Shown here: one piece after another, positions 19,776 through 45,730 of the stretch | How positions within the stretch are numbered: position 1 is the first letter of the stretch | Layout: the number at the start of each line of letters is the position of its first letter | DNA from: Promethearchaeota archaeon | Lineage (GTDB): Archaea > Asgardarchaeota > Lokiarchaeia > Sigyniarchaeales > SOKP01 | Length of the DNA: 48,344 nt | NCBI GenBank assembly: GCA_048938445.1 | Contig: JBHLME010000017.1 | Span: 1-48,344 of the forward strand | Direction: 5' to 3' | Notes under the pieces: model-generated | Told to the model about the DNA's origin: nothing | Seen by the model: only the letters and a program-made list of their open reading frames with translations | Database searches by the model: none | Program-made: the position numbers and the translations under genes

Positions 19776-19776
19776 C

Positions 19777-24383: not shown

Positions 24384-24385
24384 TT

Positions 24386-25858: not shown

Positions 25859-26068
25859 TTTTAACTTAATTGAAAATTATAAATCAATTCTTTTTTTTTA
25901 TATATAATTAAAATAACTAATTTAATTTTAAGTCATATTCATCGCTTAATTTGGTAAATATTTGATTGAATTAATTTAAAAGAATATTTATCTTATTATT
26001 ATTATTTAATCATAATAATGAATTTAAAGTATTAATCAAATTGATAGAAATTCTTATTAAAAAAAAAA

Positions 26069-27184
26069 ATGAAAAAAGTACTCGTAACTGGTTCTAGTGG
26101 ATTAATTGGATCAGCTGTCTGTGAAAAATTTGCAATGATGGATTGGCAAGTAATTGGAGTAGACAAATATTTAAGAAGTATTTTATTGCAATCTAAAGAT
26201 GCTGAAACCAAGGGCCAGATTAAAAAAATACAAGAAACATATTCTAACATCACTGAATATGAATATGATATTAACGACACTAAAAATATGGGTCAATTAA
26301 TCAATGATGTTGATGCTATAGTCCATTGCGCTGCCCAAGTAAGCCATCCAAGATCACTTGAAATTCCTCTCGAAGATGCAAAAATCAATATTATGGGCAC
26401 TTTGAATCTACTAGAATTAACAAGAGAAATTAATTCAGAAATTCCTATAGCATTTTTATCTACTAATAAAGTCTATGGTGATTATCCAAATTTTTTTAAT
26501 TATAAAATTTTAGATGATGGAATTTATAAAAGATATGAAAATACTTTATATGATTCTTTTGATGAAACACTCCCCATTGACCGATGTGGTCATACACCTT
26601 TTGGAGTGAGTAAAACAGCAGCAGATCTTTACATGCAGGAATATGCGTGGAATTATGGAATGAAAACAGCAACATTTAGAGGTGGTTGCTTAATTGGTAA
26701 AAATCAAAAAGCCGTAGAAACCCACGGATTTCTAGGTTTTTTCACAAAACAAATTCTTTTAAAAAATAAAATTTACATTTATGGTGGAGGTTATAGGGTA
26801 CGAGATAATATTCATTCAAGTGATGTTGCTGATGTAATATATTTATGGATAACTTCACCAAAACCAAATCAATTTGGGATATATGGAAAACCATATAACT
26901 TAGGAGGGATGAGAGAAAACTCTGTTAGTATTTTTGAAACAATAACTGCTATAGAAGAAAAAACAGGGATTAAAGCATTATATGAAGCAGCTCCTGAAAG
27001 AGAAAGTGATCATATATGGTGGATTTCTGATATGTCAAAATTTAAGCGGGATTATCCTGAATGGAAAGGATTAACAAAAGATTTAGATTTTATTTTTAAT
27101 GAACTTCTTGATAATTGGATTGAAGTATATAATCTAAATATAAAATTAAAAGAGCAATCGTATTTTAAAACCCATAGAACTTAA
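26069..27184 (+). CDS. Extended SDR nucleotide-sugar epimerase (CDP-paratose 2-epimerase/RfbE-like)
   Basis: TGSSGLIG, HCAAQ.SH, STNKVYG, FGVSK, FR.GC..G, VRD.IH..D. Confidence 0.85.
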   Translation: MKKVLVTGSSGLIGSAVCEKFAMMDWQVIGVDKYLRSILLQSKDAETKGQIKKIQETYSNITEYEYDINDTKNMGQLINDVDAIVHCAAQVSHPRSLEIPLEDAKINIMGTLNLLELTREINSEIPIAFLSTNKVYGDYPNFFNYKILDDGIYKRYENTLYDSFDETLPIDRCGHTPFGVSKTAADLYMQEYAWNYGMKTATFRGGCLIGKNQKAVETHGFLGFFTKQILLKNKIYIYGGGYRVRDNIHSSDVADVIYLWITSPKPNQFGIYGKPYNLGGMRENSVSIFETITAIEEKTGIKALYEAAPERESDHIWWISDMSKFKRDYPEWKGLTKDLDFIFNELLDNWIEVYNLNIKLKEQSYFKTHRT

Positions 27185-27278
27185 TCACTTAAATTAATCT
27201 ATAAACCTTATTTCATTTTAATAAATATTTATTATCATCTAATTTAAGAAAAATTTTTAAAAATAATAAATCTAAAGC

Positions 27279-28925
27279 ATGTCATTAAAAGACCTTACTA
27301 AATATTATCTCGATAAAATACCTAATATTGTACTTATACCTGTACATTCTAATATAGAAATATTTCCCTCATATCCACTTTTTGGAAAACGCGAAATATT
27401 ATGTGGTCCTAAACTGCAAAATATAGATACAGGAGAAAGAAAATGTATTCGTACAAGTGGACGTTTTTTTGATATAGATGAAGTGCTTTCACAACTCAAT
27501 GAAAATGATAGAAATATTGATTTAGTTGTCTCAGTTCTCCAAACATCTACGACTTGTTTTCCTAAAAATTTATATAAATTAGATTGCCCTAAAATTGCAA
27601 TTATTGCTGATACACACCATTTATTATATGCTATTAGTCCGATAATTCAATATATAAAACGTGAGAATTATGCGCATATTATAAAGGCATCTCAACCGGC
27701 TCATTTGCATTTTTTTTATGAAGCGGGGATTACACATTCTGCATTTTATCCACCTATTGCGCTACAATTTAAAAATGTGAAAAATAAAAAAAATGGCGTA
27801 ACTTTTATTGGAAAGAGGTGGAGTTCCCCCCAACTAAGGAGAAGCAGAATGGTTCAGTTTTTAGAGAAAAAGTTATCTCAACATAATATTCCATTTCATC
27901 ATTATGATCGCTTACCCTATTTTAAATGGCTCAAAGTCTTATCCCGTTCGAAAATGATCGTGATTAGTAGTCTAAATGGGCAATTCACACCTCAGATACA
28001 TAGTTGTCTCTTTGCAGGAGCATTGTGTTTTATTGACGAATTAAGTTCACAGACATTCCTTTATCAATTTTTTGAACCTGATAAACATTTGGTTACATGG
28101 TCTAGTTTTGAAGATTTACTTGAAAAAATTATTTATTATTATAATAATCCAACAGAAGCTGAAATAATTGCGAAAGCAGGTAAATTTCAAGCTGAAAATA
28201 ATTTTCCAACTTCTGAAAGTTTTGCATTGACAATCTCAAAATTTGTATTTGAAAATATGATTGATCCGAGGATGTTAGCCATTAATGATGCTAGAAGTCA
28301 GCAGAAACGAGTCGAATCTCCAGAGTATTTTAATGCGCGAGTAAGATTATATGAAAATATTCAAGAATTGCATCGTATTCATGAATCTTTAACACTTATT
28401 TCCCTTACAGAAAAGAATCTTAATCCATTAGCAGATTTGGCGGATTTACCACGATTAAAAATAACTAATGCTTTTTTTTCTGATAATTCCAAAAAGATTG
28501 CAGATCTTTATTTTCATAGGGTTGGAGTGAATCATCAAATAGAAACTATCATAATAAATAAACTCCATAAATCTCATTTATACAATATTGGCATTTTAGA
28601 GAAACAAGAAGATAATATAAAATGGAAAATGTCCATAAAATTAATTTCAAAATTTCTAAAAAAGAATTCATTACTATGGATTCTAGGAAATATATCCACA
28701 TCTGATATTGAAATTTTGAGTAAAGAAGGTTTCAAACTTTATGTGTTTAAAAATAATCATATAACTTTAAAAATAAAAAAATTAAGCAGAAAAGTTTGTT
28801 ATTTTTTTTGGAAAATTGGTAAATTTCCTTTTCCATATTTAACTTTAAAGCCAGCCATGGGAATGGCCCCTCATTTAAATGTATTTTTAAGAGGTTGGCA
28901 AGGTCATTTTCCTCAATGCTATTAA
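27279..28925 (+). CDS. Putative glycosyltransferase (Glyco_trans_1_2-like core) with an unassigned C-terminal region
   Basis: ADTHH, VTFIG...R, SLNG, F....HLVT......LLEKI.YY....EA..IA.AG. Confidence 0.65.
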   Translation: MSLKDLTKYYLDKIPNIVLIPVHSNIEIFPSYPLFGKREILCGPKLQNIDTGERKCIRTSGRFFDIDEVLSQLNENDRNIDLVVSVLQTSTTCFPKNLYKLDCPKIAIIADTHHLLYAISPIIQYIKRENYAHIIKASQPAHLHFFYEAGITHSAFYPPIALQFKNVKNKKNGVTFIGKRWSSPQLRRSRMVQFLEKKLSQHNIPFHHYDRLPYFKWLKVLSRSKMIVISSLNGQFTPQIHSCLFAGALCFIDELSSQTFLYQFFEPDKHLVTWSSFEDLLEKIIYYYNNPTEAEIIAKAGKFQAENNFPTSESFALTISKFVFENMIDPRMLAINDARSQQKRVESPEYFNARVRLYENIQELHRIHESLTLISLTEKNLNPLADLADLPRLKITNAFFSDNSKKIADLYFHRVGVNHQIETIIINKLHKSHLYNIGILEKQEDNIKWKMSIKLISKFLKKNSLLWILGNISTSDIEILSKEGFKLYVFKNNHITLKIKKLSRKVCYFFWKIGKFPFPYLTLKPAMGMAPHLNVFLRGWQGHFPQCY

Positions 28926-29047
28926 ATATAATCCTAGAAAATTCTATTTATGATTCACTTTAAAATTATTGAAAGAATGGATAAAAATTTAGATTAATAT
29001 ATCAAAACGATTTAAAGAATTAATTTACACCGATTATTAATATATTT

Positions 29048-29866
29048 TTATGGAATAAAATTATAATCTTTCCTTATAATTAACCAATTTTGATATTGGA
29101 AGTTCTCAAATCTAAAATCATATGACTTGATATAATTTATATACTTTGGGAAAATTTTATAAAAATTATAATTTAAACCTTCGAATAAATCAAAAATATC
29201 TTTTAAAAAAATATGAGCATCGATATAACATCCACCATATTCAAATTGAATAATATCAACTTGAGAATTTTCAAACATTTTTTTTCCACCTTTTAACACT
29301 TCATACTCATGTCCCTCTACATCAATTTTAAGAAAATTTATATGTTCTATGTTTTGTAGATTACAATAGTTATCTAGTGTATCTAAGCGGATTAGCTCAT
29401 TTTTTAATTCTGAATCTATGTTGATACGATCTTTAAACCATTTTCTTTTATAAAGTGAGCTTAAAGTTGATCCTTTTTCTGTAGAATATAATAGTTTCTC
29501 CTCTTTTATTGAACTCAATCCAAAATTATTACAGATAACATTACTTGGGAAATTATTGTTTATTAATTGTCCAAAAGAAACAATACTAGGTTCAAAACAA
29601 TGGAGATATATTTTTTTTTTAAAATTTAATGCTTGTTTTGTCCACTCACCAATATTTGCACCAACATCAAATATTACATCATTATCCTTCAGATTATTTC
29701 TTAAAAAACGTATTTCTCCATTAAGATGCATATTATCATTGTTATCACCATTATACATATCAATATATCTTCTGAAAAAGTTATATATCTTATAATAGCG
29801 AGGGATTAGTTCCAATATTAAGTTTAATGCTCTCTTTTTAAAAAGTATTGATTTATTCATAGACAC
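29048..29866 (-). CDS. FkbM family methyltransferase
   Basis: FDVGANIG, FEP, TLD, LKIDVEG.E..VL.G, QFEY. Confidence 0.92.
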   Translation of the reverse strand: MSMNKSILFKKRALNLILELIPRYYKIYNFFRRYIDMYNGDNNDNMHLNGEIRFLRNNLKDNDVIFDVGANIGEWTKQALNFKKKIYLHCFEPSIVSFGQLINNNFPSNVICNNFGLSSIKEEKLLYSTEKGSTLSSLYKRKWFKDRINIDSELKNELIRLDTLDNYCNLQNIEHINFLKIDVEGHEYEVLKGGKKMFENSQVDIIQFEYGGCYIDAHIFLKDIFDLFEGLNYNFYKIFPKYINYIKSYDFRFENFQYQNWLIIRKDYNFIP

Positions 29867-29923
29867 TTTTCTTTTTTATCTTATTATTTTAATCAATCAT
29901 TAATATAAAATTAATATTTATTA

Positions 29924-30694
29924 TCATTTTTTTTTAGTAAACCAAAAAAAACCACATCCATAATCACATAAATCAAGTTTGTTCTTATTGATATTTTGAA
30001 CATATCTACCACTATCATCCACACCTGAAAGCTCGACGAGTTCTAAATCTGAAAAATATTCTAAAATTTGATCAGTTGAGTGGATTCTATGACTATTAAA
30101 GCAGAGACGTGGTCTACCAATTGGTAAAGAAAAAAATAAATTTCCATCTTTTGCTAAAACTCTAACTAATTCTTTTGTAGCTTTTTTAGTTCCTAAAGGA
30201 TCTAATTTATCACCATATCTCCCAAGACCGATATGTTCCGCCACGTGAAGGCACGAAATTGACTTAATTGAATTATCTTGATAAGGAATTGAAATTATAC
30301 TTCCTTTAATTGACTTTAAATTATTTATATTAGCAGTTAATGGTCTTATATCAATGAATGTGACTTTTATAAGTACTGCTAAAAATCCTATAAAATATAT
30401 ATTTGAACCAATATCAACGTGAGAATCAGGTCCTGATTTAATAATTCTTGTAAATGCCCAAATATCTTGGTAAAAATAGTGAGGATCAAAAGGAGTTTTT
30501 GGGAGATCATCAAACAAAGCGGGTTGTAAATTTTTAAAACTCATCTCTTCTGCATATTTCATTTGGGAATAATTCTTCCAATCTCTTAAATATTTGATAT
30601 ATTTTGGAATTAAATGTTTTATATGTGAAATATTAATAATCGGTTTTATCCAATTTCTTAAAAAGAATTTGGAATGCCTTTTCTTTGTCATCAT
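29924..30694 (-). CDS. DUF268-like SAM-dependent methyltransferase
   Basis: HYFYQD.WA, HVDIGS, DIRP, SCLHVAEHIGLGRYGD.LDP.G, FN.HRI. Confidence 0.82.
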   Translation of the reverse strand: MMTKKRHSKFFLRNWIKPIINISHIKHLIPKYIKYLRDWKNYSQMKYAEEMSFKNLQPALFDDLPKTPFDPHYFYQDIWAFTRIIKSGPDSHVDIGSNIYFIGFLAVLIKVTFIDIRPLTANINNLKSIKGSIISIPYQDNSIKSISCLHVAEHIGLGRYGDKLDPLGTKKATKELVRVLAKDGNLFFSLPIGRPRLCFNSHRIHSTDQILEYFSDLELVELSGVDDSGRYVQNINKNKLDLCDYGCGFFWFTKKK

Positions 30695-30996
30695 ATTAAC
30701 ATATCATATTTTTAATATGGTTAATAGGTAATATTTAATATAATTAATTAAAACTTGCCTAACAATTTAGTTTTTTCAAGTAATTACTATATCTCTTAAA
30801 TTTCAAAAATATTTTATAATTTTAGTTAACAGAACTATATTATATCTAACTAATTTATACAACCAAATTAAATAGAAAAGAATAATTATTAGAGAGATTA
30901 ATTAACTAATAATAAATCACCGGACAATAGGCTATTGGAGTTTTTTTAAAATAATAGTGAGAAATTTTAATTAAAGAACTTTCATATAATTGATAA

Positions 30997-31027
30997 TTTA
31001 TATAAAAACAAAATCAATATTGATTTT
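30997..31027 (+). promoter_or_regulatory. TATA-like box followed by a perfect 18-bp palindrome (putative operator)
   Basis: TTTATATA at 30997-31004; AAAATCAATATTGATTTT at 31010-31027; ATG at 31040. Confidence 0.35.
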
Positions 31028-31039
31028 ATTAATAAATAA

Positions 31040-31867
31040 ATGATATCTCCATACATTAGAATTTTAAAGTTAAATGTAGGAAAGTTGATTAAGACTTTAG
31101 GGCTAGATTTTTTTTTTTTTAAACTTAAATCTATCTTAAATTGGTATTTACCATGGAATTTTAAAGAAAAACAAAAAATTATTTCTTTCTATTCATCTTT
31201 TATAGGAAAAGATGATTTATGTTTTGATATTGGAGCTAATATAGGAAATATTACAAATTATTTACTTAAAGTAGGGGCAAAAGTGATATGTGTAGAACCC
31301 GTGAAGAAATGTCAAGATAAGCTGTATTACAAATTTGGAAAAAATAAAAATATTATAATTGTTGGAAAAGCGTTAGGTGAAAAAGAAGGTACAAACCAAA
31401 TTTTAATTTCAGAGGGAGCAGAAAGCATCTCAACCTTTTCAGAAAAATGGATTAATGAAGGTCGATTTTCAGGAAAATTTAAATGGAATAGTTCTGAACA
31501 AGTTGAAATGACAACATTAGACAATTTAATAAGCAAGTATGGTAAACCAAAATTTTGTAAAATTGATGTAGAGGGTTATGAAAGTGAAGTAATCAAAGGT
31601 TTATCAAAACCAATTCCTATAATATGCTTTGAATTTACCAAAGAATTTCTAGAAGATGTTGAAAAAAATATTGAATTCTTAAAAACTCTAGGTAAAGTAA
31701 AGTTTAATTTCGTTATTGGGGCAAGTTTCAATTTTTATTTTAAAAATTTAGTTGACTCAAATTTAATTTTAAATACACTAAAAAAGATGAATAATAACCA
31801 TAAATTATGGGGAGATATTTATGTTTTTTTCATTAATATGCTAAAATCAAATTATAATGAGAAATAA
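31040..31867 (+). CDS. FkbM family methyltransferase
   Basis: FDIGANIG, VEP, TTLD.LI..YG.P.FCKIDVEGYE, WGD. Confidence 0.92.
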   Translation: MISPYIRILKLNVGKLIKTLGLDFFFFKLKSILNWYLPWNFKEKQKIISFYSSFIGKDDLCFDIGANIGNITNYLLKVGAKVICVEPVKKCQDKLYYKFGKNKNIIIVGKALGEKEGTNQILISEGAESISTFSEKWINEGRFSGKFKWNSSEQVEMTTLDNLISKYGKPKFCKIDVEGYESEVIKGLSKPIPIICFEFTKEFLEDVEKNIEFLKTLGKVKFNFVIGASFNFYFKNLVDSNLILNTLKKMNNNHKLWGDIYVFFINMLKSNYNEK

Positions 31868-32157: not shown

Positions 32158-32937
32158 ATGGAATCTATTATTTTAGCTGCAGGATTTGCAAGTCGTTTTA
32201 ATTTTAAGGACTCAACTTTTAAAAAATTCATGCTTCCATTAAGGAATTCTGTTTTGTTGAATTATGTAATGGGAGGAATGTTTATGGCAGGAATCAATAA
32301 AATTAATATAATTATTGATGAAAATGTAGATCAAAGAAGTATTATCGAATCATTCAATAATTTTATAGAAAAATCAAATTTAAACATAAATGAATTAAAG
32401 ATAAACTTTATTCCAAATTTATATCCTGAGAGAGAAAATGGATATAGTTTATTTTTAGGAGTTCGGGAGGTAAAGTCATTATATTTTATCTTATCAATGG
32501 CAGATCATATATTCTCAATAAATGTGTATTTACACTTAATTAATAATTATAATGAGGAGGATGTGGTTTTAGCTACAGATCCAATGGAAATACAAGGAAT
32601 GTATGATTTAGATGATTGTACAAAAGTATTGGGCGAATCCAAACAAATTAAGAATATAGGTAAAAAAATTCCTACATATAATAGACTTGATATGGGAGCT
32701 TTTATTATGAAAACTAGTACTATCAAAGAAAAAGCCCAACAAATCGAGAAAAAATTAAATAATTTCGGTGTTTCTGATATATTATTATCTGCCATAGAAG
32801 AAAATTTAAAAGTGAACTATTTTGATTTTCCGAATACAATATGGATTGATGTTGATAACGAAATTGAATATAATAAAGTAAAAAATACTTTTTACTTATC
32901 TTCTCTCTATAAGCCATTTGAATTAGAATTTGAATAG
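32158..32937 (+). CDS. NTP-transferase, CTP:inositol-1-phosphate cytidylyltransferase (IPCT)-like, stand-alone
   Basis: ILAAG..SR...K, ERENGYSL, MADH, D.TKV......IGK......D.GAF, WIDVD, all matching IPCT as I recall the family. Confidence 0.75.
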   Translation: MESIILAAGFASRFNFKDSTFKKFMLPLRNSVLLNYVMGGMFMAGINKINIIIDENVDQRSIIESFNNFIEKSNLNINELKINFIPNLYPERENGYSLFLGVREVKSLYFILSMADHIFSINVYLHLINNYNEEDVVLATDPMEIQGMYDLDDCTKVLGESKQIKNIGKKIPTYNRLDMGAFIMKTSTIKEKAQQIEKKLNNFGVSDILLSAIEENLKVNYFDFPNTIWIDVDNEIEYNKVKNTFYLSSLYKPFELEFE

Positions 32938-32989
32938 AATTTAATTGTAATTGTCTCCTTTTTAAAGAAAAATTTAAAAATAGTATTAG

Positions 32990-34240
32990 TTAAATTATTT
33001 TTAAAAATTTTAATAATCTTTCTGTAGAATTACCATCAATGTGTTTATGATAAATTTTTTGAGCTTCTTTTCTAAGTGATTCATACTTTTTATCTAATTC
33101 ATCTAAATTTTTAATGCATTCTAATAAACTCTTGCTATTAAAAATAAGTGGCCCTGGAGCAATTTTCTCGAAATCATAATAAAATCCTCTACTATTTTTC
33201 ATAAATTCTTCAAAATCATAAGTAAAGAAAATAATTGGTCGGTTTAACAACAAAAAATCACAATAAACAGAAGAATAATCTGTAATTAATACATTTGAAA
33301 TTATTAATAATTCTTGAATTTCTGAATTTTTATCAACATCAAAAATATTAGAATATAGCTTGAATTCTACTGATTGTTCATACATGTGAGCTTTTGCTAA
33401 TAATACGGCATTTTTTTCAATTAGCAATGTATTTAATTTCATTAGATCCTTTTCAGATAAAGCAAATTTAGCTTTATAAACGAAATCTCTAAAAGTTGGA
33501 GCATATAATAAGATTTTTTTAGTTTGATCGGGAATTTTATATTTTTTCTTAATTTGCTCTTTATAATTATTGTTTTTTGTAAATAATATATCATTCCTAG
33601 GATAACCTGTTGCTAATACTTTCCTTGGAGATATTTGAAAGTATTTTGAAATAAGATGTATGTCTTTTTTAGTACCAGAGGTTGTAATAAAATAGTTAAA
33701 AACATTATTATTTATGATATTTAATCGAAGTAATCTAGCGATTTTGCTATTAGAATATTTAACAGGACCATGTTCTGTAAGATTTCTCTTATTTTGTACT
33801 CCATGCCAAGTCTCTACATAAATGGTATTTTTAGAAAATTCAATTGGTAAAACATCTAAAATACCATGTGTAGTAAAAATGAATTTTGCTTTTTTTAAGA
33901 GCTTAATAGCTTTTAAACTAAATTTAGGAACACAATTATACCCTTTTTTTTTCAATTCTATTATTAGATCTTTGGATTTTGCCAACCATACGAGTTTATA
34001 ATCTGTATTTTTATATATATATTCAAATAAATATTTTGTATTTCCGATAAAAGCAGAACCACCAATAGCGCTCATCACTATTAATTTTTCATCAATATCA
34101 TCTTTAAGAAATTTAGAAAAATATTTTAAAAAAAGAGATATGATAATTTGTTGTATAAAGTAATAAAAATTTGTCCTTTTAATATTTGAATGTCTATTAA
34201 ATAGCTCATTTATAAAAGATAAAATCATTATTAGCATCAC
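32990..34240 (-). CDS. CDP-glycerol glycerophosphotransferase (TagB/TagF) family protein
   Basis: TWHG, TGYPRND, LYAPTFRD, K.H, LITDYSS..D, RPI.F..YD, R.FY, DG.S..R. Start position uncertain. Confidence 0.9.
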   Translation of the reverse strand: MMLIMILSFINELFNRHSNIKRTNFYYFIQQIIISLFLKYFSKFLKDDIDEKLIVMSAIGGSAFIGNTKYLFEYIYKNTDYKLVWLAKSKDLIIELKKKGYNCVPKFSLKAIKLLKKAKFIFTTHGILDVLPIEFSKNTIYVETWHGVQNKRNLTEHGPVKYSNSKIARLLRLNIINNNVFNYFITTSGTKKDIHLISKYFQISPRKVLATGYPRNDILFTKNNNYKEQIKKKYKIPDQTKKILLYAPTFRDFVYKAKFALSEKDLMKLNTLLIEKNAVLLAKAHMYEQSVEFKLYSNIFDVDKNSEIQELLIISNVLITDYSSVYCDFLLLNRPIIFFTYDFEEFMKNSRGFYYDFEKIAPGPLIFNSKSLLECIKNLDELDKKYESLRKEAQKIYHKHIDGNSTERLLKFLKII

Positions 34241-34539
34241 TAATTCTTTTAGAGATTAAATATTATTTATTAATACAATACCATCCTATTTTTAATTAAT
34301 AATTTTAGTAAAGAGATCAATTTATAAGTAATCATTTTTAACCGAATTACAATTCATAAATAACTTTTAATATTTTAACCTATTTTATAATCTGTTTTCT
34401 CCAGTTATCTAAAAGAAGGTCCATTTTTTTTAAAAAAATGTTCAATAATGATGGATATTTCAACTAAAAGTATTTATTACAAATTACGGATTTTGTATTC
34501 ATGAGATTTAATTTAAAAAATAATTGAAAATTAGAAACA

Positions 34540-35601
34540 ATGAATTCAATAAACATAGGAATAATCGGAATTGGTAATTGTGCTTCTGCGTTAATTCAAG
34601 GGATTGAATATTATAAGAATAATAGTAATAATAATGGATTACTTCATCCCTTTCTAGCAGGATTTCATATTTCAGATATAAAAATAGTTGCAGCAGTGGA
34701 TATTTCTAAAAAAAAGATTAGTAAAGACATTGCGGAAGCAATTTATGAAAATGATCTTAATGTAATTGTAGATATAAAAGAAAACTTGAATATTCCAGTG
34801 GTAATGGGAACAGTCTTAGATGGTGTTATTGATGAGACTTCTGAGAGGATTAATCCTGCAAATCAAAAACCAATAAATATGGTAGATTACTTCAAATCGA
34901 CAGGTACTGAAATAGTTTTATGTTTATTACCATCAGGAGCAGATAAAGCTGTTAAATTTTATGCTGAAGAGGCCTTAAGAGCAGGTTGTGGTTTTATTAA
35001 TGCTACACCTACAAATATAGCAAATAACGAAGATTTCGCAGAACGATATAAAAATGCAGGTTTACCATTAATTGGAGATGACTTACAAGACCAATTTGGA
35101 GCAACTATTCTACATAAAATTATTCTACTTCAAATGCTAAATCGAGGGATTAAAATAAAAGAAAGTTATGCCCTCGATGTTGGTGGTGGTTCTGAAAGTT
35201 TAAACACTATTTATAGATCAAGAGAAGTAAAAAGAGAAATAAAAAGTAATTCTGTCGCAGGAGCTTTAAATATTGAAGCACCAATTATTGCTGGGACTTC
35301 TGATTGGGTACCGTTTTTAGGAAATAAAAGAAATTCAATGTTATGGATTGTTGGAAAAGGATTTTTAGGCTCTGAAGTAATTATGGATATTAAAATTCAA
35401 ACAGAGGATGGTCCTAATGGAGGATCAATACTTGTGGATGTAATCCGAGCAACAAAAATTGCACTTAATCAGGGATTATCAGGACCTATTAATGAAATTT
35501 CTGCATATGGATTCAAAAAACCTCCAAAAACGTTTAAAAATCCTGAAGTAGCAATAAGAAATTTAGCTAATTTTATATTGGGTATGAAAAGCGGAGAGTG
35601 A
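34540..35601 (+). CDS. Myo-inositol-1-phosphate synthase-like protein, divergent paralog
   Basis: GIGNCASALIQG, LPSG, FINA.P, GDD..DQ.GAT..H, EDGPN; several canonical motifs are altered. Confidence 0.8.
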   Translation: MNSINIGIIGIGNCASALIQGIEYYKNNSNNNGLLHPFLAGFHISDIKIVAAVDISKKKISKDIAEAIYENDLNVIVDIKENLNIPVVMGTVLDGVIDETSERINPANQKPINMVDYFKSTGTEIVLCLLPSGADKAVKFYAEEALRAGCGFINATPTNIANNEDFAERYKNAGLPLIGDDLQDQFGATILHKIILLQMLNRGIKIKESYALDVGGGSESLNTIYRSREVKREIKSNSVAGALNIEAPIIAGTSDWVPFLGNKRNSMLWIVGKGFLGSEVIMDIKIQTEDGPNGGSILVDVIRATKIALNQGLSGPINEISAYGFKKPPKTFKNPEVAIRNLANFILGMKSGE

Positions 35602-35611
35602 AGAGATTAAT

Positions 35612-36781
35612 ATGAAAACGATTCAAATTTCAAAGCAAGAAAATAATATTGATGAAAAAGAGATTCGAATTGCAATAGCAGGACTAGGAAATTGCGCTTC
35701 AGCGTTAATACAAGGTTTAGAATTTTATAAAAATATTAAAGAAGAGGACATGTATATAAAAGGTTTAATGAATCCTAGTATAGGGGGTTATCTTCCCCGC
35801 CATATTAAAGTGGTTGCTGCTTTTGATGTAGCAAAAACTAAAATTTTCAAGGATATTTCAGAAGCAATCTATGCGGAACCCAATTGTTGTCAAGCAATCA
35901 TAAACCAAAAAGACATGCCTTTTTTAGGAGCAAAATGTTATCCTGGACCAATCTCAGATGGATTATATAAATCTGATGATGGAAAGATCTCTACTTATGA
36001 ATATTTCAAAGCCTATGATGAAAATGAAATTAAACCTGTAGATGTTACCCAAACATTAATTGAAAATCAAGCAGAGATTCTAATTAATTTATTGCCAGTT
36101 GGAAGTTATGAAGCATCACGATTATATGCACAGGCCGCTATAGATGCGGGATGTGGATTTATTAATGCCATTCCAGAATTTATTGTTTCTGAGCAGGTTG
36201 ATGGTGATAAAAATTGGGTAGCTGAATTCGAGAAAAAAGGACTCCCTTGTGCAGGTGATGATATCAAATCCCAAGTTGGAGCAACCCTTACTCATCGCGT
36301 TCTATCAAAAATGTTCTTAGATAGAGGAGTTATCATAACCGATACTTATCAATTAAATATTGGAGGAAATGGAGATTTCTATAACATGAAATCAGAACAG
36401 CGATTAGCAACTAAACGAAAATCTAAAACTTCAGCGGTTGCTTCTGTTCTTCCATATCCCATAAATTGTAGAATTGGACCTAGTGATTATGTCCCTTTTC
36501 TTGAGGATAAAAAAATCTGTTATATTAGAATTGAAGGTAAAACTTATGGAAACTTACCTTTAATGTTAGATTTGAAACTTAGAGTAGAAGATTCGCCTAA
36601 TTCCGCTGGTGTTATACTAGACATAATTCGAGTTATGAAACTCGCATTAGATAGGGGAATATCTGGACGATTGGAAAGTATTAGTTCTTTTAGTTTTAAA
36701 CACCCACATATTCAACCATCATCGGATTTTATAGCAAAAAAATGGGTTGCAGAATTCATAGAAAATAAAAGAGAAAGATAA
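35612..36781 (+). CDS. ino1: Myo-inositol-1-phosphate synthase
   Basis: GLGNCASALIQG, LPVGS, GDDIKSQVGAT..HR, YQLNIGGN.DF.NM...RL..K..SK, GPSDYV, EDSPNSAG, FKHP. Confidence 0.93.
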   Translation: MKTIQISKQENNIDEKEIRIAIAGLGNCASALIQGLEFYKNIKEEDMYIKGLMNPSIGGYLPRHIKVVAAFDVAKTKIFKDISEAIYAEPNCCQAIINQKDMPFLGAKCYPGPISDGLYKSDDGKISTYEYFKAYDENEIKPVDVTQTLIENQAEILINLLPVGSYEASRLYAQAAIDAGCGFINAIPEFIVSEQVDGDKNWVAEFEKKGLPCAGDDIKSQVGATLTHRVLSKMFLDRGVIITDTYQLNIGGNGDFYNMKSEQRLATKRKSKTSAVASVLPYPINCRIGPSDYVPFLEDKKICYIRIEGKTYGNLPLMLDLKLRVEDSPNSAGVILDIIRVMKLALDRGISGRLESISSFSFKHPHIQPSSDFIAKKWVAEFIENKRER

Positions 36782-36866: not shown

Positions 36867-37850
36867 TTATTCATCTTCATACCAACAAATTAAAACCAAT
36901 TCATAAATTGGAGTCAAATGATTTAACCTCCTTACAATACATTTGTAATTTGGATTTAATTTCTTGATGTAATCAAATGTTTCAAAAAACTCTTTTCCAT
37001 TATGATAAATACTAATAATTAATAGTGGTTTATCCTTTTCAATGGTTTTTTTAGCACCTTTTAAAACTTCCAATTCTAAACCTTCTACATCCAATTTAAT
37101 TAAACCTAACACTAAATTATGTTCTAAGGCATAATTATCTATAGAAATTACTTGAATTTCTTGATCTCCTTTATGTGAGATTGATGAGCTAGAAGATTCT
37201 GATGAGATTTTTAATATCTCTTTTTTCTCCCCTAATCCTAGGTTTTGAGGAATAACTTTTTTTAAATTATTTTTTTTTATAGTCTCTAATAATAATTTAT
37301 AATTATTTTGTTCTGGTTCGAAAGCAATAATTGTACGAGGAGTATATAATTTTTCATATATTAACGCAGAATCACCTATAAATGCGCCTCCATCGATAAA
37401 ATCCGTTCCTTCTAATTTTTGAATAACTTTTTTTGGTAATAATTTCAATCCCGTGTTATAATAGAAAATTGAATTATCATATTTATCAATAGGGAGAAAA
37501 AATTTGTCTTTATAATGTTTAATAGAATTTATAATCGTAGTTTTATGTTTTAAGTCATTAGAGCTCAATAATTTTTTACGTTCTAATAAATTATGAGTAT
37601 AGATATAATATATTTTATTAAAAAACTCTTCAAGAATTTTTTTACTTTCTGAATCAAATTTAGCAAAGTATGAATCTAGATCAATATGATTTATTAAACT
37701 ATACTCATAAATGTCTTTAGCATAATTATACATTAATTTATCCCTTTTATAACTAACAAAATCATTTATAAAATAGAAGATGCTAGTAGAATCATTAAAA
37801 AATAATGCTTGGATTTTCATTATTAAATTTTGAATTCTCTTAGATTTCAT
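36867..37850 (-). CDS. FkbM family methyltransferase
   Basis: IDGGAFIGD, AFEP, SID, IKLDVEG.E..VL.GA, ISIYH. ATG 37850 preferred as start. Confidence 0.9.
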   Translation of the reverse strand: MKSKRIQNLIMKIQALFFNDSTSIFYFINDFVSYKRDKLMYNYAKDIYEYSLINHIDLDSYFAKFDSESKKILEEFFNKIYYIYTHNLLERKKLLSSNDLKHKTTIINSIKHYKDKFFLPIDKYDNSIFYYNTGLKLLPKKVIQKLEGTDFIDGGAFIGDSALIYEKLYTPRTIIAFEPEQNNYKLLLETIKKNNLKKVIPQNLGLGEKKEILKISSESSSSSISHKGDQEIQVISIDNYALEHNLVLGLIKLDVEGLELEVLKGAKKTIEKDKPLLIISIYHNGKEFFETFDYIKKLNPNYKCIVRRLNHLTPIYELVLICWYEDE

Positions 37851-38144
37851 TTTGGTAATAGTTTTATGAAAAATTGAAAAAACTTTTAAGAACAAGGAAT
37901 TTTACTCTCTAAGATTGTTTTATTATTATAATATGATTTAGTTTTAAATATTTTTTATATATATTCTCAGACTTTGAAAAGTAAAATTAATATAAGTTTA
38001 CTAATTTTTATTAAAGCCTTTAGTTGAAACAGACAATATCATTATGTATATACTGAAAGAATTGAATCTACTTAATTTTTAAATAAAGAAAATAAATTAT
38101 TTATATTTCATATGATTATATTTAATTAAATATAATTAAAAGTA

Positions 38145-38393
38145 ATGAGAAAGATGTCCGAAGAAGATCATAAAGTTGAATATACGACTGTATCTATACC
38201 CAAACCATTAGCTGAAAAAATAAAGGATCGAATGAAAGGAACTGGATTTTCTTCAGTTTCAAGTTATGTAACTTATGTTTTAAGACAGGTTTTATCCTCA
38301 ATTGAAGAAGAAGAAAGGTCAAAAGAAGCCTTTACTAAAGAGGAAGAAGAAAAGGTCAAACAACGGTTAAGAGATTTAGGATATATTGATTAA
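38145..38393 (+). CDS. CopG/ribbon-helix-helix transcriptional regulator with an 'EEEEKVKQRLRDLGYID' tail
   Basis: YTTVSIPKPL..KI......GFSSVSSYV.YVLR is an RHH fold pattern. Confidence 0.85.
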   Translation: MRKMSEEDHKVEYTTVSIPKPLAEKIKDRMKGTGFSSVSSYVTYVLRQVLSSIEEEERSKEAFTKEEEEKVKQRLRDLGYID

Positions 38394-38444
38394 CTCTTAA
38401 AAAGGTCCAAAATCGATTCAATTCTTAAATGGAGGTACTTAAAA

Positions 38445-39593
38445 ATGATTCAACCACATGGAGGAAGGTTAATTAATAAAAAATTACCTAAAAGAGAAAT
38501 AGAGAGAGTTAATGAAAATTTTAATGAATTTATACATTTATCTGTTAATAAAACAACCCTAAAAGTTATTAAAAACATATCTAATGGTGTTTTTAGTCCT
38601 TTAGAAGGTTTTATGGTTGAAAATGATTTCATAAATGTTCTGGAGCATATGCATTTAGAGAATGATATACCTTGGTCAATTCCAATAGTTTTAGATGTTT
38701 CTAAAGAAGAAGCTGACTTATTTAAAGTAGGAGATCGTATTATATTATCGAATTCTTCAGATAAGCCTATTGCCCTTATGGATGTTGAAGATACATATAC
38801 ATTTGATAAAAAAAAATATGCTAAAAAAGTATTTGGAACATTAGATAAAGAACATCCGGGTGTACAAAATCTTTTTAATCAAAATGATATATTTATTGGT
38901 GGTGAAATATTTCTCGTGAATGAACCAAAGCCTATTTTTCCCGAATTAGATCTAAAACCAATAGAAACTAGAGTTTTATTTAAAGAAATGAAATGGGATA
39001 AAATTGCAGCTTTCCAAACTAGAAATCCACCACATTTAGGTCATGAATATGTTCAAAAAGCAGCTTTAACTTTCACTGATGGCATCTTTATAAATCCCGT
39101 AATTGGGAAAAAAAAAAATGGAGATTTCCTTGATGAAGTAATTATCAATGCTTATAAAGTACTTATTAAGGAATATTATCCTAAAAATAGGGCGGTATTA
39201 AGTACATTTGAAACAGAAATGCGATATGCCGGACCTAAAGAAGCAATTTTTCATGCGATAGCGAGAAAGAACTTTGGATGTGATTTTATAATCATTGGAC
39301 GAGATCATGCTGGAGTAGGGAATTATTATGGGCCGTATGATGCTCATGAGATTTTTAAGCAATTTCCAGATTTAGGGATAGAACCGATAAAATTCAGGTC
39401 CTTTTCAAAATGTAGTAAATGTGATTCCATTGTTAATGATAAGATTTGTCCTCATCCTCCAGAAATGCAAAACTTTTTTGCAGGAAGAGATATTCGAGAT
39501 GCTTTAATTGCGGGTATTCCCCCCAATTCCGAATTAATGAGGCCAGAAGTGGCAGAAATCATTTTAAAATTTAAAAATCCTTTTGTAACTTAA
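38445..39593 (+). CDS. sat: Sulfate adenylyltransferase (ATP sulfurylase)
   Basis: PHGG.L, SPL.GFM, FQTRNPPH.GH, MRYAGP.EA, GRDHAGVG, MRPEV; GGAGGT RBS at 38431. Confidence 0.97.
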   Translation: MIQPHGGRLINKKLPKREIERVNENFNEFIHLSVNKTTLKVIKNISNGVFSPLEGFMVENDFINVLEHMHLENDIPWSIPIVLDVSKEEADLFKVGDRIILSNSSDKPIALMDVEDTYTFDKKKYAKKVFGTLDKEHPGVQNLFNQNDIFIGGEIFLVNEPKPIFPELDLKPIETRVLFKEMKWDKIAAFQTRNPPHLGHEYVQKAALTFTDGIFINPVIGKKKNGDFLDEVIINAYKVLIKEYYPKNRAVLSTFETEMRYAGPKEAIFHAIARKNFGCDFIIIGRDHAGVGNYYGPYDAHEIFKQFPDLGIEPIKFRSFSKCSKCDSIVNDKICPHPPEMQNFFAGRDIRDALIAGIPPNSELMRPEVAEIILKFKNPFVT

Positions 39594-39616
39594 ATTAATT
39601 TAAGGAGAATGATAAT

Positions 39617-41002
39617 TTGAAAAAAAAGAAAAAAATAATTGTTATAGGATTAGATTGTGCAACTCCTAAAACTTTATTTGAAGATTTTATAAATGAATGC
39701 CCGAACATTAAAAAATTAATGGACGAGGGTGTTTATGGCAAGTTGAGAAGTTCCGATCCTCCTATAACCATTCCTGCATGGATGGTAATGGCAACAAGTA
39801 AAAAAGCAGGAACACTTGGATTATATGGGTTTAGACACCGAAAAGAGAATTCTTATACGGATTTTTGGGTTGCAAGTTCTTATAATATAAAAGAACCGAA
39901 AATCTGGGATATTCTTGGTGAAAAAGGTTTGAAATCTATCATTTTAGGAATACCTCCCACATATCCAATACAAGAGATAAATGGTCACATGGTTTCAGGA
40001 TTCATAACTCCAGATACTTCATCTAATTATACTTATCCTCCAGAGTTAAAAGAAGAAATACAGAATAATATTGGTCAATATATCTTAGATGCTAATTTTC
40101 GAACTGAAAATAAAGCAGATTTACTTGTTGAAATTTATCAAATGACGAAGGTTCAATTTAAAACAATAAAATATTTGCTAAAAAATAAAGAGTGGGATTA
40201 TTGTCAATTTGTCATAATTGGACTTGATAGAATGCATCATGCTTTCTGGAAATATTACGATTCTTCACACGCAAAATATGAACCTAATAACATTTTTGAA
40301 AGCGCCTTGAAAAACTATTATAAATATATAGACGAAGAAGTAGGTGAGATTCTTGATATTATTGAAAAAGAGACAATAGTAATAATTGCATCTGATCATG
40401 GCGCAAAAGCAATGAAGGGATGTATATGCGTGAACACTGCATTGGAAAAGCTAAGATTATTAAGATTTAAAAAACAACCAGAACCAGGGACAAAATTAGA
40501 AGATACTGAAATAGATTGGAATAATACATATGCCTGGGGATGGGGTGGATATTATGCGCGTATTTTTTTAAATGTCCAAGGGAGAGAACCTCAAGGAATC
40601 ATTCCCACAGAAGATTATGAAAAATGGAGAGAAAAAGTTATAAATTCTCTAAAAAGTATTAAAAATCCAGATGGCAAACCAATGAATACAATAATTTACA
40701 AACCTGAAGAATTATATGAGGAATTAAAAGGTGATTATCCTGATTTGATGGTTTATTTCGATGATCTAAATTGGAGATCTGCGGGAACTGTAGGATATGA
40801 TACCATATATCTTGACGAAAATGATACGGGTCCCGATGACGCCGTCCATGATTACTATGGTATTTTTATAATTCATGATACAAATAACAAAATTGGTAAA
40901 AAATTAGAAACTAAAAATATTTTAGATATTGCTCCAACAATTTTAAGCATATTTGGATTTGAAATTCCTAAAGAAATGCAAGGAAAAGTAATTAACTATT
41001 AA
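39617..41002 (+). CDS. Alkaline-phosphatase-superfamily (nucleotide pyrophosphatase/phosphodiesterase-type) enzyme, cytoplasmic
   Basis: IGLD, PPITIPAW (Thr nucleophile), DRMHH, SDHG, H...G, DIAPTIL. No signal peptide; TTG start with AGGAG. Confidence 0.88.
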   Translation: MKKKKKIIVIGLDCATPKTLFEDFINECPNIKKLMDEGVYGKLRSSDPPITIPAWMVMATSKKAGTLGLYGFRHRKENSYTDFWVASSYNIKEPKIWDILGEKGLKSIILGIPPTYPIQEINGHMVSGFITPDTSSNYTYPPELKEEIQNNIGQYILDANFRTENKADLLVEIYQMTKVQFKTIKYLLKNKEWDYCQFVIIGLDRMHHAFWKYYDSSHAKYEPNNIFESALKNYYKYIDEEVGEILDIIEKETIVIIASDHGAKAMKGCICVNTALEKLRLLRFKKQPEPGTKLEDTEIDWNNTYAWGWGGYYARIFLNVQGREPQGIIPTEDYEKWREKVINSLKSIKNPDGKPMNTIIYKPEELYEELKGDYPDLMVYFDDLNWRSAGTVGYDTIYLDENDTGPDDAVHDYYGIFIIHDTNNKIGKKLETKNILDIAPTILSIFGFEIPKEMQGKVINY

Positions 41003-41019
41003 ATACAAATGATGTAGAG

Positions 41020-41553
41020 ATGGAACATAAAGGATTTACGCTATGGTTTACAGGTTTAGCATGTTCAGGTAAAACTGTATTAGCTGATGCTGTTGCTGAG
41101 GAATTACGGAAGAAAGGTATGAATGTGGAAAGACTTGATGGTGATATAGTTCGAAAAAACCTTACAAAAGACCTGGGTTACTCTGATAAAGATAGAAGAA
41201 TGAACATAGAAAGAGTAACTTTTGTAGCTAAACTTTTAACACGTAATGGTGTAGCTGTACTAGCTTCTTTTATATCACCATTTAACGATATTAGAGCTTA
41301 CTCTCGAGAGGAAATCGGTGATTTTATTTTAGTCTATGTAAAATGTTCTCTTCAAGAATGTGAAAATAGGGATGTTAAAGGAATGTACGCTAAAGCTAGA
41401 GCGGGGGAGATTAAGGAATTTACTGGAATTGATTCTCCCTTTGAAGAGCCCGATACTGCAGATATTATCGTTGAATCTGACAAGCAAACTATTGATGAAA
41501 GTAAAAATATTATTCTAAATGCATTAGATAAAATGGGTTATCTCCCCAATTAA
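41020..41553 (+). CDS. cysC: Adenylyl-sulfate kinase
   Basis: WFTGL..SGKT, LDGD, SFISP, RD.KG.Y.KA..G.I..FTGIDSPFE.P. Confidence 0.96.
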   Translation: MEHKGFTLWFTGLACSGKTVLADAVAEELRKKGMNVERLDGDIVRKNLTKDLGYSDKDRRMNIERVTFVAKLLTRNGVAVLASFISPFNDIRAYSREEIGDFILVYVKCSLQECENRDVKGMYAKARAGEIKEFTGIDSPFEEPDTADIIVESDKQTIDESKNIILNALDKMGYLPN

Positions 41554-41663: not shown

Positions 41664-42590
41664 TTATTTCAAAATTTCCATTACTTTTTTTTTTAAATTA
41701 TCTATATTTAAACCGTAGGCATCTAATAATACTGAAGTCTTTCCAGAAACCACAAAGGTATCATTTATCCCAATAAATTTCATAACTTTAGGTGATTTTT
41801 CAGAAATTATTCGTGCTAAAATACTCCCAATACCACAATAAATATTATGTTCTTCAATAACTATAATCCCTTTAACTTCTTCTATATTAAGAAGTAGTTT
41901 CTCTATGTTAATTGGTTTAATTTTGGATAGATTTATAACTTTAATTGAAATATTTAATTCTTTCTCTATTAATGGAGCGGAGTGATGAGCTAATATTGCA
42001 CCATAACCTGATCCAATGAAACATATATCATTTCCTTTTTTTAACAGATCAATATTCTCATCAGAAAAAACATAATCAATATCATGGATTCGCGAAAATA
42101 TTCCACGCGGTAATCTCATATAAATTGGACCTTCATTATTAAAAGCATAATCTAACATCTGTTCTAATTCTAGGTCATCTGCTGGAATAAGAATTGTTAA
42201 ATTGGGAAGAGATGCCATTAAACTTAAATCTTCAAGAGCATGATGTGTACTCCCATCTTCTCCTACAATACCACCATGAGTTGTAATTATTTTTACATTC
42301 AAATTATCATGACATGCTAATCGTATAAATTCCCATGCCCTACCTGTTGTGAATATTGTAAATCCACTTACAACGGGAATTTTTCCAGAAATGGAAAAAC
42401 CTAACGCTGTACCAACCATATTTTGTTCAGCAATACCCATATTAAAAAATCTATCTGGAAAGGATTTAGCAAATTGTGATGTTCTAGTAGAACTTGAGAG
42501 ATCAGCATCGAGAACAATTATATCTTTATTTTTTTTTCCATATTCAACTAATAAATCGCCAAATTTATCTCTTAAGGCTATTTCAGTCAA
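41664..42590 (-). CDS. Transketolase, C-terminal subunit
   Basis: DADL..ST, GIAEQNM, RAWE..R, GEDG.THH..ED, Y.R..R, EEH...G.GS. The TTG start abuts the upstream stop. Confidence 0.93.
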   Translation of the reverse strand: MTEIALRDKFGDLLVEYGKKNKDIIVLDADLSSSTRTSQFAKSFPDRFFNMGIAEQNMVGTALGFSISGKIPVVSGFTIFTTGRAWEFIRLACHDNLNVKIITTHGGIVGEDGSTHHALEDLSLMASLPNLTILIPADDLELEQMLDYAFNNEGPIYMRLPRGIFSRIHDIDYVFSDENIDLLKKGNDICFIGSGYGAILAHHSAPLIEKELNISIKVINLSKIKPINIEKLLLNIEEVKGIIVIEEHNIYCGIGSILARIISEKSPKVMKFIGINDTFVVSGKTSVLLDAYGLNIDNLKKKVMEILK

Positions 42591-43451
42591 TTAAAAATTT
42601 CCCTCCTTTACTTCTGTCTTTAAAAAATGAAGTTCTCCCATTGCTGCTTCAAATTCCTCTTTATTTGGGGGTCTTCCATGAAAAAAACGAGTATGCTCCA
42701 TAAATGACACATCAGCACCCTTTACGAGATATGAGATGATGATTTTAGGTTTTTTAATAATTTTCTTGGATTTATTAAAAGTTTTGATAAGTTCAGACAA
42801 ATTTGAACCATCTACTTCAAGAATTTCCCATCCAAAAGATTTCCATTTTGAAGCCAATGGTTCTAAAGCCATTACTTCTTCCGTGGAGCCATCAATTTGA
42901 AATCCATTCCTATCTACGATAGCTATTAAATTATCTAATTTATAATGGGCTGCTGACATTGCTGCTTCCCATATTGCTCCTTCATTTAATTCTCCATCTC
43001 CTAAAAGAATATAAACACATTTCTCATTATTTTTTTCTAATTTAGCCGATAATGCACATCCAATTCCAATAGATAATCCCATACCTAATGAACCTGTGCT
43101 TATATCAATCCCTAATTTTCCATTTTTCATTGGATGGCCTTGTAGATCAGAATTAAAGTGTCTGAAAGTTTTTAATTTTTCTTTGGAAATATAACCTAAT
43201 TTTGAAAGGACAGCATATAATGCTGGAGCAGCATGACCCTTGCTTAATATAAAAAAATCTCGTCCACTCCATTGAGGATCATCCTGTTTTAACTTTAGAA
43301 TCTTTTTATATAGGATATAAATTAAATTTGCACAAGAAAGAGAGCCACCTGGATGACCAGATTGTGAATTATAGATCATCTTGAGAATATCTTCCTTGAT
43401 ATCAAGTATATCTAACATTAATTGTTTTTCTTCTTTTTCTGATAATTTCAT
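42591..43451 (-). CDS. Transketolase, N-terminal (TPP-binding) subunit
   Basis: SGHPGGSLS, LSKGHA, LQGHP, STGSLG.G, GDGEL.EG..WEA, D.N..Q.DG, HG. Probable start is ATG 43451, not 43610. Confidence 0.93.
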   Translation of the reverse strand: MKLSEKEEKQLMLDILDIKEDILKMIYNSQSGHPGGSLSCANLIYILYKKILKLKQDDPQWSGRDFFILSKGHAAPALYAVLSKLGYISKEKLKTFRHFNSDLQGHPMKNGKLGIDISTGSLGMGLSIGIGCALSAKLEKNNEKCVYILLGDGELNEGAIWEAAMSAAHYKLDNLIAIVDRNGFQIDGSTEEVMALEPLASKWKSFGWEILEVDGSNLSELIKTFNKSKKIIKKPKIIISYLVKGADVSFMEHTRFFHGRPPNKEEFEAAMGELHFLKTEVKEGNF

Positions 43452-43470
43452 GAGATATTGGGGTAATAAT

Positions 43471-44475: not shown

Positions 44476-44550
44476 TTTTAATGGGATTAAGTGATATCAA
44501 TTGATTTTTTTCATTTTTGATTGTATTTAAGATTATTTAAATAACAAGAA

Positions 44551-45724: not shown

Positions 45725-45730
45725 GTATTC

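Follow-up and report, generated by a model that had tools for sequence, protein, structure and literature searches.

A candidate CDP-inositol-to-TagF module in a surface-glycan island of an Asgard archaeon

What is a cytidylyltransferase that resembles those of inositol-based solute synthesis doing beside a teichoic-acid-type phosphotransferase in an archaeon? The question is raised by a 48,344-bp contig (JBHLME010000017.1 of GenBank assembly GCA_048938445.1; C76 in our numbering), hereafter the window, from a metagenome-assembled genome (MAG) of a Promethearchaeota archaeon of the Lokiarchaeia. The MAG comprises 4.63 Mb in 256 contigs and is 96.5% complete. Four adjacent genes in the window encode a protein like inositol-1-phosphate cytidylyltransferase (IPCT), a TagF/TarF-family phosphotransferase and two members of the MIPS (synthase of myo-inositol-1-phosphate) family, which we call MIPSa and MIPSb. 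Bacterial TagF-family enzymes move glycerol-phosphate or ribitol-phosphate from a CDP-alcohol onto a lipid-linked chain, and the donor role so far known for CDP-inositol is in the synthesis of a compatible solute and of lipid head groups. Asgard archaea are the closest prokaryotic relatives of eukaryotes, and their cell surface is almost uncharacterised. With moderate confidence, we propose that the four genes form a single module that would pass CDP-inositol to TagF within an ABC-transporter-dependent surface-glycan island; the CDP-inositol/TagF assignment itself appears well supported by comparative genomics.

The IPCT-like gene (32158-32937, forward strand) encodes a stand-alone protein of 259 aa without a DIPPS domain, DIPPS being the CDP-alcohol phosphotransferase of di-myo-inositol-phosphate (DIP) synthesis. 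The TagF/TarF-family gene lies on the reverse strand (32990-34240) and encodes 416 aa, comprising the catalytic region only. Beyond it on the forward strand are MIPSa (34540-35601, 353 aa), a paralog whose active site is remodelled, and MIPSb (35612-36781, 389 aa), which bears the canonical signature and starts 10 bp past the MIPSa stop. All four open reading frames that an earlier note on this DNA had described as neighbors are present, and their Pfam, NCBIfam and PDB matches agree. The same note had seen no DIPPS and no TagD or TarI in the window; indeed, none of the 43 open reading frames of at least 90 aa matches PF01066 (CDP-alcohol phosphotransferases), PF01467 (TagD type) or PF01128 (TarI/IspD type).

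The IPCT-like protein matches PF12804 at 33.5 bits (cut-off 27). Its best NCBIfam match is NF041135, the bifunctional IPCT/DIPPS family, which it covers over the N-terminal half (positions 1-217 of 419) at 96.6 bits, with the next family at 28 bits. Among structures, it matches 4JD0 (E 2.4e-14) and the IPCTs 2XME (E 2.3e-9) and 4MND (E ~1e-9). 4JD0 is the inositol-1-phosphate cytidylyltransferase of T. maritima, for which the available part of PMC12275187 names R16, K26 and D112 as critical residues. Arg13, Lys23 and Asp116 (the Asp of SMADH) of the window protein align with these three active-site residues, the number mapping of the Asp being approximate.

Evidence that these genes belong together comes from 135 genomes of the window's family (prefixes G, L and C denote genomes, loci or metagenome contigs, and contigs of this MAG, respectively). 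Strong IPCT orthologs occur in 38 of them and fall into two clades: clade A, which includes the window enzyme, in 10 genomes (56-64% identity to the window protein), and clade B in 29 (44-50%), with both present in G097. Clade A spans four genera. TagF is encoded in 37 of the 135 genomes, namely in all 10 with a clade A enzyme, in 10 of the 28 with clade B only and in 17 of the 97 with neither. The clade A enzyme, IPCT-A, touches TagF in six genomes: that of the window (52-bp gap), G097, G122, G006, G027 and G030. In G029 the two lie 2.5 kb apart with MIPSb and MIPSa alone between them, and in G025 they are separated by 14.5 kb; these distance counts leave out G022, where the contig spans 3.9 kb, and G028, where it spans 3.7 kb. 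All four genes are clustered also in G097, G122, G006 and G029, partly in G022, and on the metagenome contigs L219, L228 and L229, a grouping that is beyond chance. MIPSa, MIPSb and IPCT follow one another co-directionally with short gaps in G097, G122 and G029 and on contigs L219 and L229; in the window, TagF alone separates IPCT from the MIPS pair.

Clade B enzymes keep different company, adjoining a CDP-OH_P_transf protein and a canonical MIPS. We read these operons, which occur in sediment Asgard archaea of low GC, as a predicted DIP-like route or CDP-inositol lipid route. Their CDP-OH protein (L056-L066, L125-L153) comes in two forms, one of 440-463 aa with an unannotated N-terminal part of 260 aa and the other of about 210 aa.

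The difference in partners extends across a wider collection, from which a motif-seeded scan of one genome per species yielded 80 loci that were then scanned with purpose-built hidden Markov models. A CDP-OH phosphotransferase is adjacent or fused to IPCT in 26 of 28 clade B loci and in 40 of the 43 loci from outside Asgard (including Aquificota, Desulfurococcales, Archaeoglobaceae and WOR-3), and in none of nine clade A loci; TagF is present on six of those nine and on none of the other 71. A FastTree phylogeny built from 81 IPCT domains recovers clade A (0.92 support for its 10 leaves) and clade B (0.97 for its 28) as sister groups with support 0.91, and the two together are nested among CDP-OH-partnered lineages. 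Metagenome contigs repeat the pattern. Among 20 that were called clade A-type from identities, some perhaps from the same organisms as the MAGs, TagF is found on 10, MIPS on nine and a CDP-OH protein on none; TagF is absent from all 60 contigs that are not of clade A type. Since all 10 clade A genomes have TagF and the other IPCT lineages examined occur with a CDP-alcohol phosphotransferase, the partner appears to have been swapped, with TagF replacing the usual consumer of CDP-inositol in clade A. The check that the earlier note suggested, for co-occurrence of IPCT and TagF without DIPPS across genomes, thus favors its reading. Among closed genomes of a sister family (G269, G272, G277, G271 and G281), no homolog of IPCT clade A or B was detected at E <= 1e-10, and TagF is present in G277 only, so that the module is absent from the closed genomes of that family.

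TagF genes of relatives adjoin other nucleotidyltransferases together with the genes for their substrates, so that a neighboring activating enzyme feeding TagF looks like a recurring pattern. One such neighborhood, seen in L087 (G003, positions 1281-7197) and in L092, L093, L096 and L098, places beside TagF a protein in which PEP mutase is fused to NTP_transf_3, together with a TPP decarboxylase, an Fe-ADH and one more NTP transferase. Its gene content suggests that a nucleotide-activated phosphonate head group may be passed to a TagF-family enzyme.

The window TagF is a confident family member, matching PF04464 at 260.6 bits (cut-off 22.1) over profile positions 6-364 of 367 and S. epidermidis TagF (3L7M) at E 8.8e-41; it also matches Cps3D (8QOY) at E 6.9e-19. 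TagF positions 444 and 584, which we take to be the two catalytic histidines, as would fit the Ala at 584 in the 3L7M chain, correspond in the alignment to His146 (of TWHG) and His285. The protein misses the bacterial equivalog cut-offs for TarF (192 of 550 bits), TarL (106 of 1000) and TarB (57 of 500), and it is the product of the only PF04464 gene in the genome. In a tree of 50 TagF domains (MAFFT and FastTree), the window clade has nine leaves, all from genomes with IPCT clade A and representing eight of the 10. A second TagF clade, with double-TagF proteins of about 820 aa among its members, likewise comes from clade A genomes only, if a sister branch is set aside. By analogy with bacteria, primer and polymerase roles would fit the two TagF clades and the double-TagF proteins that several clade A genomes have.

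The two MIPS-family proteins differ from one another. PF01658 matches MIPSa at 57.5 bits and MIPSb at 106.7 bits, and M. tuberculosis MIPS (1GR0) matches them at E 1.8e-65 and 1.5e-89, respectively. Both retain the NAD motif, as GIGNCAS in MIPSa and GLGNCAS in MIPSb. We checked 13 active-site positions, numbered as in A. fulgidus (D225, K227, N255, D259, D261, K274, K278, D304, K306, D332, K367 and two Ser) and mapped through two alignments, one of them of 53 sequences. MIPSb is canonical at all 13, as is the MIPS linked to clade B. MIPSa departs at eight (K227Q, a Ser-to-Asp change, N255D, Gly at 259, D261E, D304N, K306R and S333G) and retains the equivalents of D225, K274, K278, D332 and K367. 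Thus, of the two inositol-1-phosphate synthases named in the earlier note, MIPSb holds as a predicted myo-inositol-1-phosphate synthase converting glucose-6-phosphate to inositol-1-phosphate, and MIPSa does not share its active site. By alignment-based mapping, we assume that K306 corresponds to the fungal Lys432; roles for the checked positions other than K278, K367, N255 and the lysine network are likewise presumed. Catalysis in MIPS is attributed to a network of lysines in the available part of PMC11348189, which names Lys278, Lys367 and Asn255 in the archaeal enzyme and Lys432 in the fungal one.

MIPSa is a conserved protein. Its signature is constant across 26 aligned MIPSa-type sequences, with small deviations in one (L085), and these sequences include matches of 44-50% identity from other families of the phylum; MIPSb is 70-82% identical to its orthologs from other genera. 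MIPSa adjoins MIPSb in 15 loci, whereas G269, G272, G277, G314 and G389 have it together with a b-type gene at an unlinked position. The genome carries a third MIPS gene on contig C61. MIPSa may represent a new cyclitol-phosphate activity, an enzyme acting on another cyclitol or sugar phosphate, or a non-catalytic partner subunit. The MIPSa clade is phylum-wide (the window; L067-L086; L112-L116), and a canonical MIPS stands alongside it in every genome checked.

The identity of the IPCT-A substrate can be approached from its sequence and its neighbors. Of 28 positions conserved in at least 80% of non-Asgard IPCTs, clade A retains 24 and clade B 23, with the motifs used for the collection scan biasing two of the conserved blocks. 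These conserved positions, taken with the linkage to MIPS, favor a substrate that is either unchanged inositol-1-phosphate or a closely related cyclitol phosphate.

We envision a pathway of five steps. MIPSb would cyclise glucose-6-phosphate to L-myo-inositol-1-phosphate, which the stand-alone IPCT-A would combine with CTP to give CDP-inositol. TagF would then take CDP-inositol, release CMP and leave an inositol-phosphodiester on a glycan built by the neighboring glycosyltransferases. The acceptor could be a lipid-linked or a nascent glycan, and the product a single inositol-phosphate, acting as cap or primer, or a polymer. Finally, the glycan would be methylated or sulfated and exported through the ABC-2 transporter.

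Several observations weigh against this pathway. The IPCT-like protein, at 96.6 bits, falls short of the NF041135 equivalog cut-off of 580, although that model is of bifunctional proteins and the window protein lacks the DIPPS half; its likeness to 4JD0 is modest, at E 2.4e-14. Relatives within the fold family activate phosphocholine, phosphoglutamine and, in CpgD, phosphoglycerate, according to the available part of PMC12275187. Residue 154 is Cys in 10 of 10 clade A enzymes, as opposed to Ala in 71 of 71 other IPCTs (D-C-T-K versus D/E-A-T-K); it is the sole clade A-specific change and may mark a shift in substrate or specificity. IPCT-A-linked TagFs fall into two separate TagF clades, so there appears to be no single "inositol-specific" TagF lineage. 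No IPCT-TagF fusion was matched among proteins of 455-2000 aa at E <= 1e-5, which is weak evidence. As to sampling, genomes of one family are not independent, and six of the 10 clade A genomes belong to one genus; the scan motifs (SMADH[IV]FS and RENGYSL) would miss relatives that do not carry them, perhaps including TagF-adjacent ones in bacteria; and the contamination estimate of the MAG is 8.17%. Finally, the MIPSa/b pair is not confined to the module. In 10 of the 20 MIPSa loci fetched it occurs without IPCT or TagF in unrelated neighborhoods, G025 and G030 show no linkage between it and IPCT/TagF, and it was not found in G027 and G028, which are 82% and 81% complete. Because the pair stands alone elsewhere yet is enriched in clade A genomes (MIPSa is present in seven of the nine others versus 11 of the 125 remaining family genomes), we regard it as a putative older unit that the IPCT-A/TagF module recruited.

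Three alternatives address these points. In the first, the donor is a different CDP-cyclitol: MIPSa would convert the MIPSb product or a sugar phosphate, IPCT-A would activate the result and TagF would transfer it. The clade-wide alternative signature of MIPSa at eight of 13 positions, including the equivalents of K306 and N255, fits such a scheme, as do its retained NAD motif, its adjacency to MIPSb in 15 loci and the restriction of Cys154 to clade A; moreover, there is precedent in a MIPS homolog that makes a five-membered cyclitol phosphate, for which a structure has been solved (6K96). However, MIPSa and MIPSb coexist in G269, G272 and G277, where no IPCT clade A or B homolog is detected at the threshold given above. 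The role of MIPSa is therefore not specific to the IPCT-A/TagF module, and we consider this scheme unlikely.

A second alternative holds that IPCT-A has changed its substrate, to glycerol-phosphate, a phospho-sugar acid or a phospho-amine, that TagF transfers this group and that the MIPS pair is in the island by coincidence. Substrates do vary across members of the fold family (PMC12275187, in the part available), and the Cys154 replacement, the independence of the MIPSa/b pair in half of its fetched loci and the IPCT/TagF arrangements without an adjacent MIPS in G027, G030 and G025 would all be accommodated. Set against this, the sister clade B, at 44-50% identity, resides in operons of IPCT, CDP-OH protein and MIPS; clade A retains 24 of the 28 family-wide conserved positions; MIPSa, MIPSb and IPCT share one direction in G097, G122, G029, L219 and L229; MIPSa is concentrated in clade A genomes, as described above; and the loci examined have, next to IPCT-A, no gene for a different phospho-alcohol precursor. 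We judge this alternative quite unlikely.

The remaining alternative turns on what else the genome encodes. TagD was not found there, the best g3p_cytidyltrns score being 40 bits against a cut-off of 165. The four PF01467 matches are a PPAT (134.7 bits), an NMNAT (166.4 bits) and two proteins that match general cytidylyltransferase models only (59-64 bits); PF01128 matches score best to models for CobY (102 bits) and archaeal GlmU (496.5 bits). Because these proteins score best elsewhere, we find no TagD or TarI in the genome, and the caveat of the earlier note that TagF might be fed by CDP-glycerol or CDP-ribitol made elsewhere finds no source among them. The two small PF01467 proteins were considered as TagD and rejected: the gene next to one is for a CTP-dependent riboflavin kinase, and the surroundings of the other are of the Fe-S/thioredoxin kind. 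We take this pair to resemble archaeal RibL.

On the consumer side, the genome encodes six PF01066 proteins, all of them unlinked to IPCT: two AIPS-like ones (161 and 138 bits), one of the archaetidylserine-synthase type and three without an assignment. An ortholog of the clade B CDP-OH partner was not found in the genome, the 450-aa form having no match and the 210-aa form matching at no more than 35%, to an AIPS-like gene. As to a DIPPS elsewhere that might account for the IPCT, no clade B partner ortholog is present and the IPCT-A/TagF linkage is kept; the two unlinked AIPS-like CDP-OH transferases may be further users of CDP-inositol. In the third alternative, CDP-inositol would go to a CDP-alcohol phosphotransferase of the membrane that is unlinked to the island, yielding a DIP-like solute or an inositol lipid, and the TagF donor would be supplied elsewhere. 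Six PF01066 proteins are available, two of them AIPS-like, and CDP-inositol is a known donor for DIP and, as cited in the available part of PMC9246714, for an ether inositol lipid. Against this, the six are unlinked to IPCT, the clade B partner is missing, the genome yielded neither TagD nor TarI nor any further candidate that could make a CDP-alcohol for TagF, and the strict co-occurrence of IPCT-A and TagF would be left without explanation; we judge this alternative very unlikely.

How does the proposed transfer of CDP-inositol to TagF compare with known systems? The DIP pathway (MIPS, IPCT and DIPPS, the latter two often fused; NF041135, 2XME, 4MND and 4JD0) likewise has MIPS near an IPCT-type enzyme, and among named relatives of the window protein its IPCT matches best. 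However, the window has no DIPPS or CDP-alcohol phosphotransferase as domain or neighbor and has TagF in that place, and its genes sit in a glycan island with an exporter rather than in a solute operon. The non-Asgard relatives found are mostly from thermophile lineages, and DIP hosts are thermophiles or hyperthermophiles, whereas the window organism stems from sediment metagenomes and its GC content is about 29%. Sequencing runs that contain the stretch 32158-36781 are DNA runs of sediment metagenomes, with no RNA run listed. With the wall teichoic acid systems of Firmicutes (TagD/TagF for CDP-glycerol, TarIJ/TarL for CDP-ribitol, and the TagGH exporter), the window shares a PF04464 protein with two His, a neighboring cytidylyltransferase and an ABC-2 exporter. 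It differs in that the activating enzyme is IPCT-like and not TagD or TarI, the precursor genes are for MIPS and not for glycerol or ribitol, and the host, an archaeon, lacks peptidoglycan; nor did the window show a TagO/TagA set.

CDP-inositol lipid routes offer a third comparison. The available part of PMC9246714 proposes an alternate inositol-lipid cluster in Bacteroidetes that combines an NTP transferase, a CDP-alcohol phosphatidyltransferase and a HAD protein. The window shares with it a stand-alone IPCT-like NTP transferase near MIPS and a proposed use of CDP-inositol as head-group donor, and clade B resembles the arrangement as there described; in clade A, the transferase is instead of TagF type, soluble or peripheral rather than integral, and the neighborhood is one of glycan rather than lipid genes. 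The TagF-like capsule polymerases of Gram-negative bacteria (PMC5974469, as far as available; 8QOY, Cps3D) resemble the window system in their TagF-like domain, phosphodiester polymers and ABC export. Those enzymes are large and multidomain with glycerol-phosphate or ribitol-phosphate donors, in contrast to the single 416-aa domain of the window, and double-TagF proteins of about 820 aa are present in related clade A loci. CpgD of Caulobacter has the same IPCT-like fold, shares the three active-site residues and makes a CDP-head group for a surface molecule, according to the portion of PMC12275187 at hand. Its substrate in that account is phosphoglycerate and its acceptor a sphingolipid, so similarity of fold does not fix the substrate.

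In the literature, mostly main texts outside subscription journals, we found no paper that links CDP-inositol to a TagF-family enzyme and no description of an inositol-phosphate polymer of teichoic type. A broader form of our proposal, which we consider rather unlikely but worth stating, is that Loki-type Asgard archaea would carry a poly(inositol-phosphate), teichoic-acid-like, or a glycan heavily decorated with inositol-phosphate, that CDP-inositol, or a CDP-cyclitol shaped by MIPSa, would be the first cyclitol donor for TagF, and that MIPSa would be a new, phylum-conserved cyclitol-phosphate enzyme. A cyclitol-phosphate donor, if true, would widen the chemistry both of the TagF family and of CDP-inositol, and a genetically defined inositol-phosphate glycopolymer, if true, would be a concrete and testable component of the Asgard surface. 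The apparent partner swap offers a natural experiment on the re-wiring of head-group activating enzymes, and MIPSa is a separate lead toward a new enzyme activity.

The four genes lie within a 26-kb island (about 15.1-41.6 kb) whose GC content of 22-25% stands against 29-33% in the flanks; contigs of the MAG range from 24% to 34% with a median of 29%. By Pfam assignment, the island encodes glycosyltransferases, six methyltransferases, an epimerase, an ABC-2 permease and ATPase, ATP sulfurylase and APS kinase. The part upstream of the IPCT gene (15091-31867) holds GT1/GT4 and Glyco_trans_1_2 glycosyltransferases, SAM and FkbM methyltransferases and an NAD epimerase. Within it, the ABC-2 permease and ATPase genes (18942-20733, forward strand; PF01061 and PF00005) encode a predicted exporter of the TagGH/Wzm-Wzt type. 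Downstream of MIPSb (36867-41553) are genes for an FkbM methyltransferase, ATP sulfurylase, an alkaline-phosphatase-superfamily protein (Phosphodiest/Sulfatase) and APS kinase. Homologs of the ABC-2 exporter are found within a few kb of IPCT/TagF in G097, G027 and G029, and a homolog of the glycosyltransferase at 15091-16281 adjoins TagF in G097 and G114 and lies nearby in G027 and G029.

The island directly follows genes for PheRS alpha and beta, PheA and RNase PH (window 9611-14794). In relatives, the same flank bears different glycan clusters that contain TagF, confirmed by Pfam in four loci (L091, L094, L102 and L103); six further loci match the flank arrangement by the pattern of open reading frame sizes alone. 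From these clusters, the island appears to be a hypervariable surface-glycan locus at a conserved site.

Elsewhere in the MAG are diverged gene pairs (C214/C114, C146/C199 and C17/C144) for RibL-like, AIPS-like and 314/322-aa CDP-OH proteins. These housekeeping-type pairs are either true paralogs or the product of a mixed bin.

Beyond the island, a heptose-type gene set (41664-47350) encodes a split transketolase, a PfkB kinase like RfaE domain I, GmhB, a ribulose-phosphate 3-epimerase, GmhA and an HddA-like GHMP kinase; the cognate nucleotidyltransferase is not present in the window. We considered the IPCT-like protein as a part of this pathway, at 43-47 kb, and rejected it, since it has no match to an HddC model at E <= 0.01.

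The Sat/APS kinase stretch is the predicted sulfate-activation side of the island. ATP sulfurylase, the 461-aa Phosphodiest/Sulfatase protein and APS kinase form a fixed trio (window 38445-41553; L096, L100 and L101), whose middle protein may have a role in glycan sulfation or phosphodiester tailoring. In G119, G093 and G115, the trio directly adjoins TagF.

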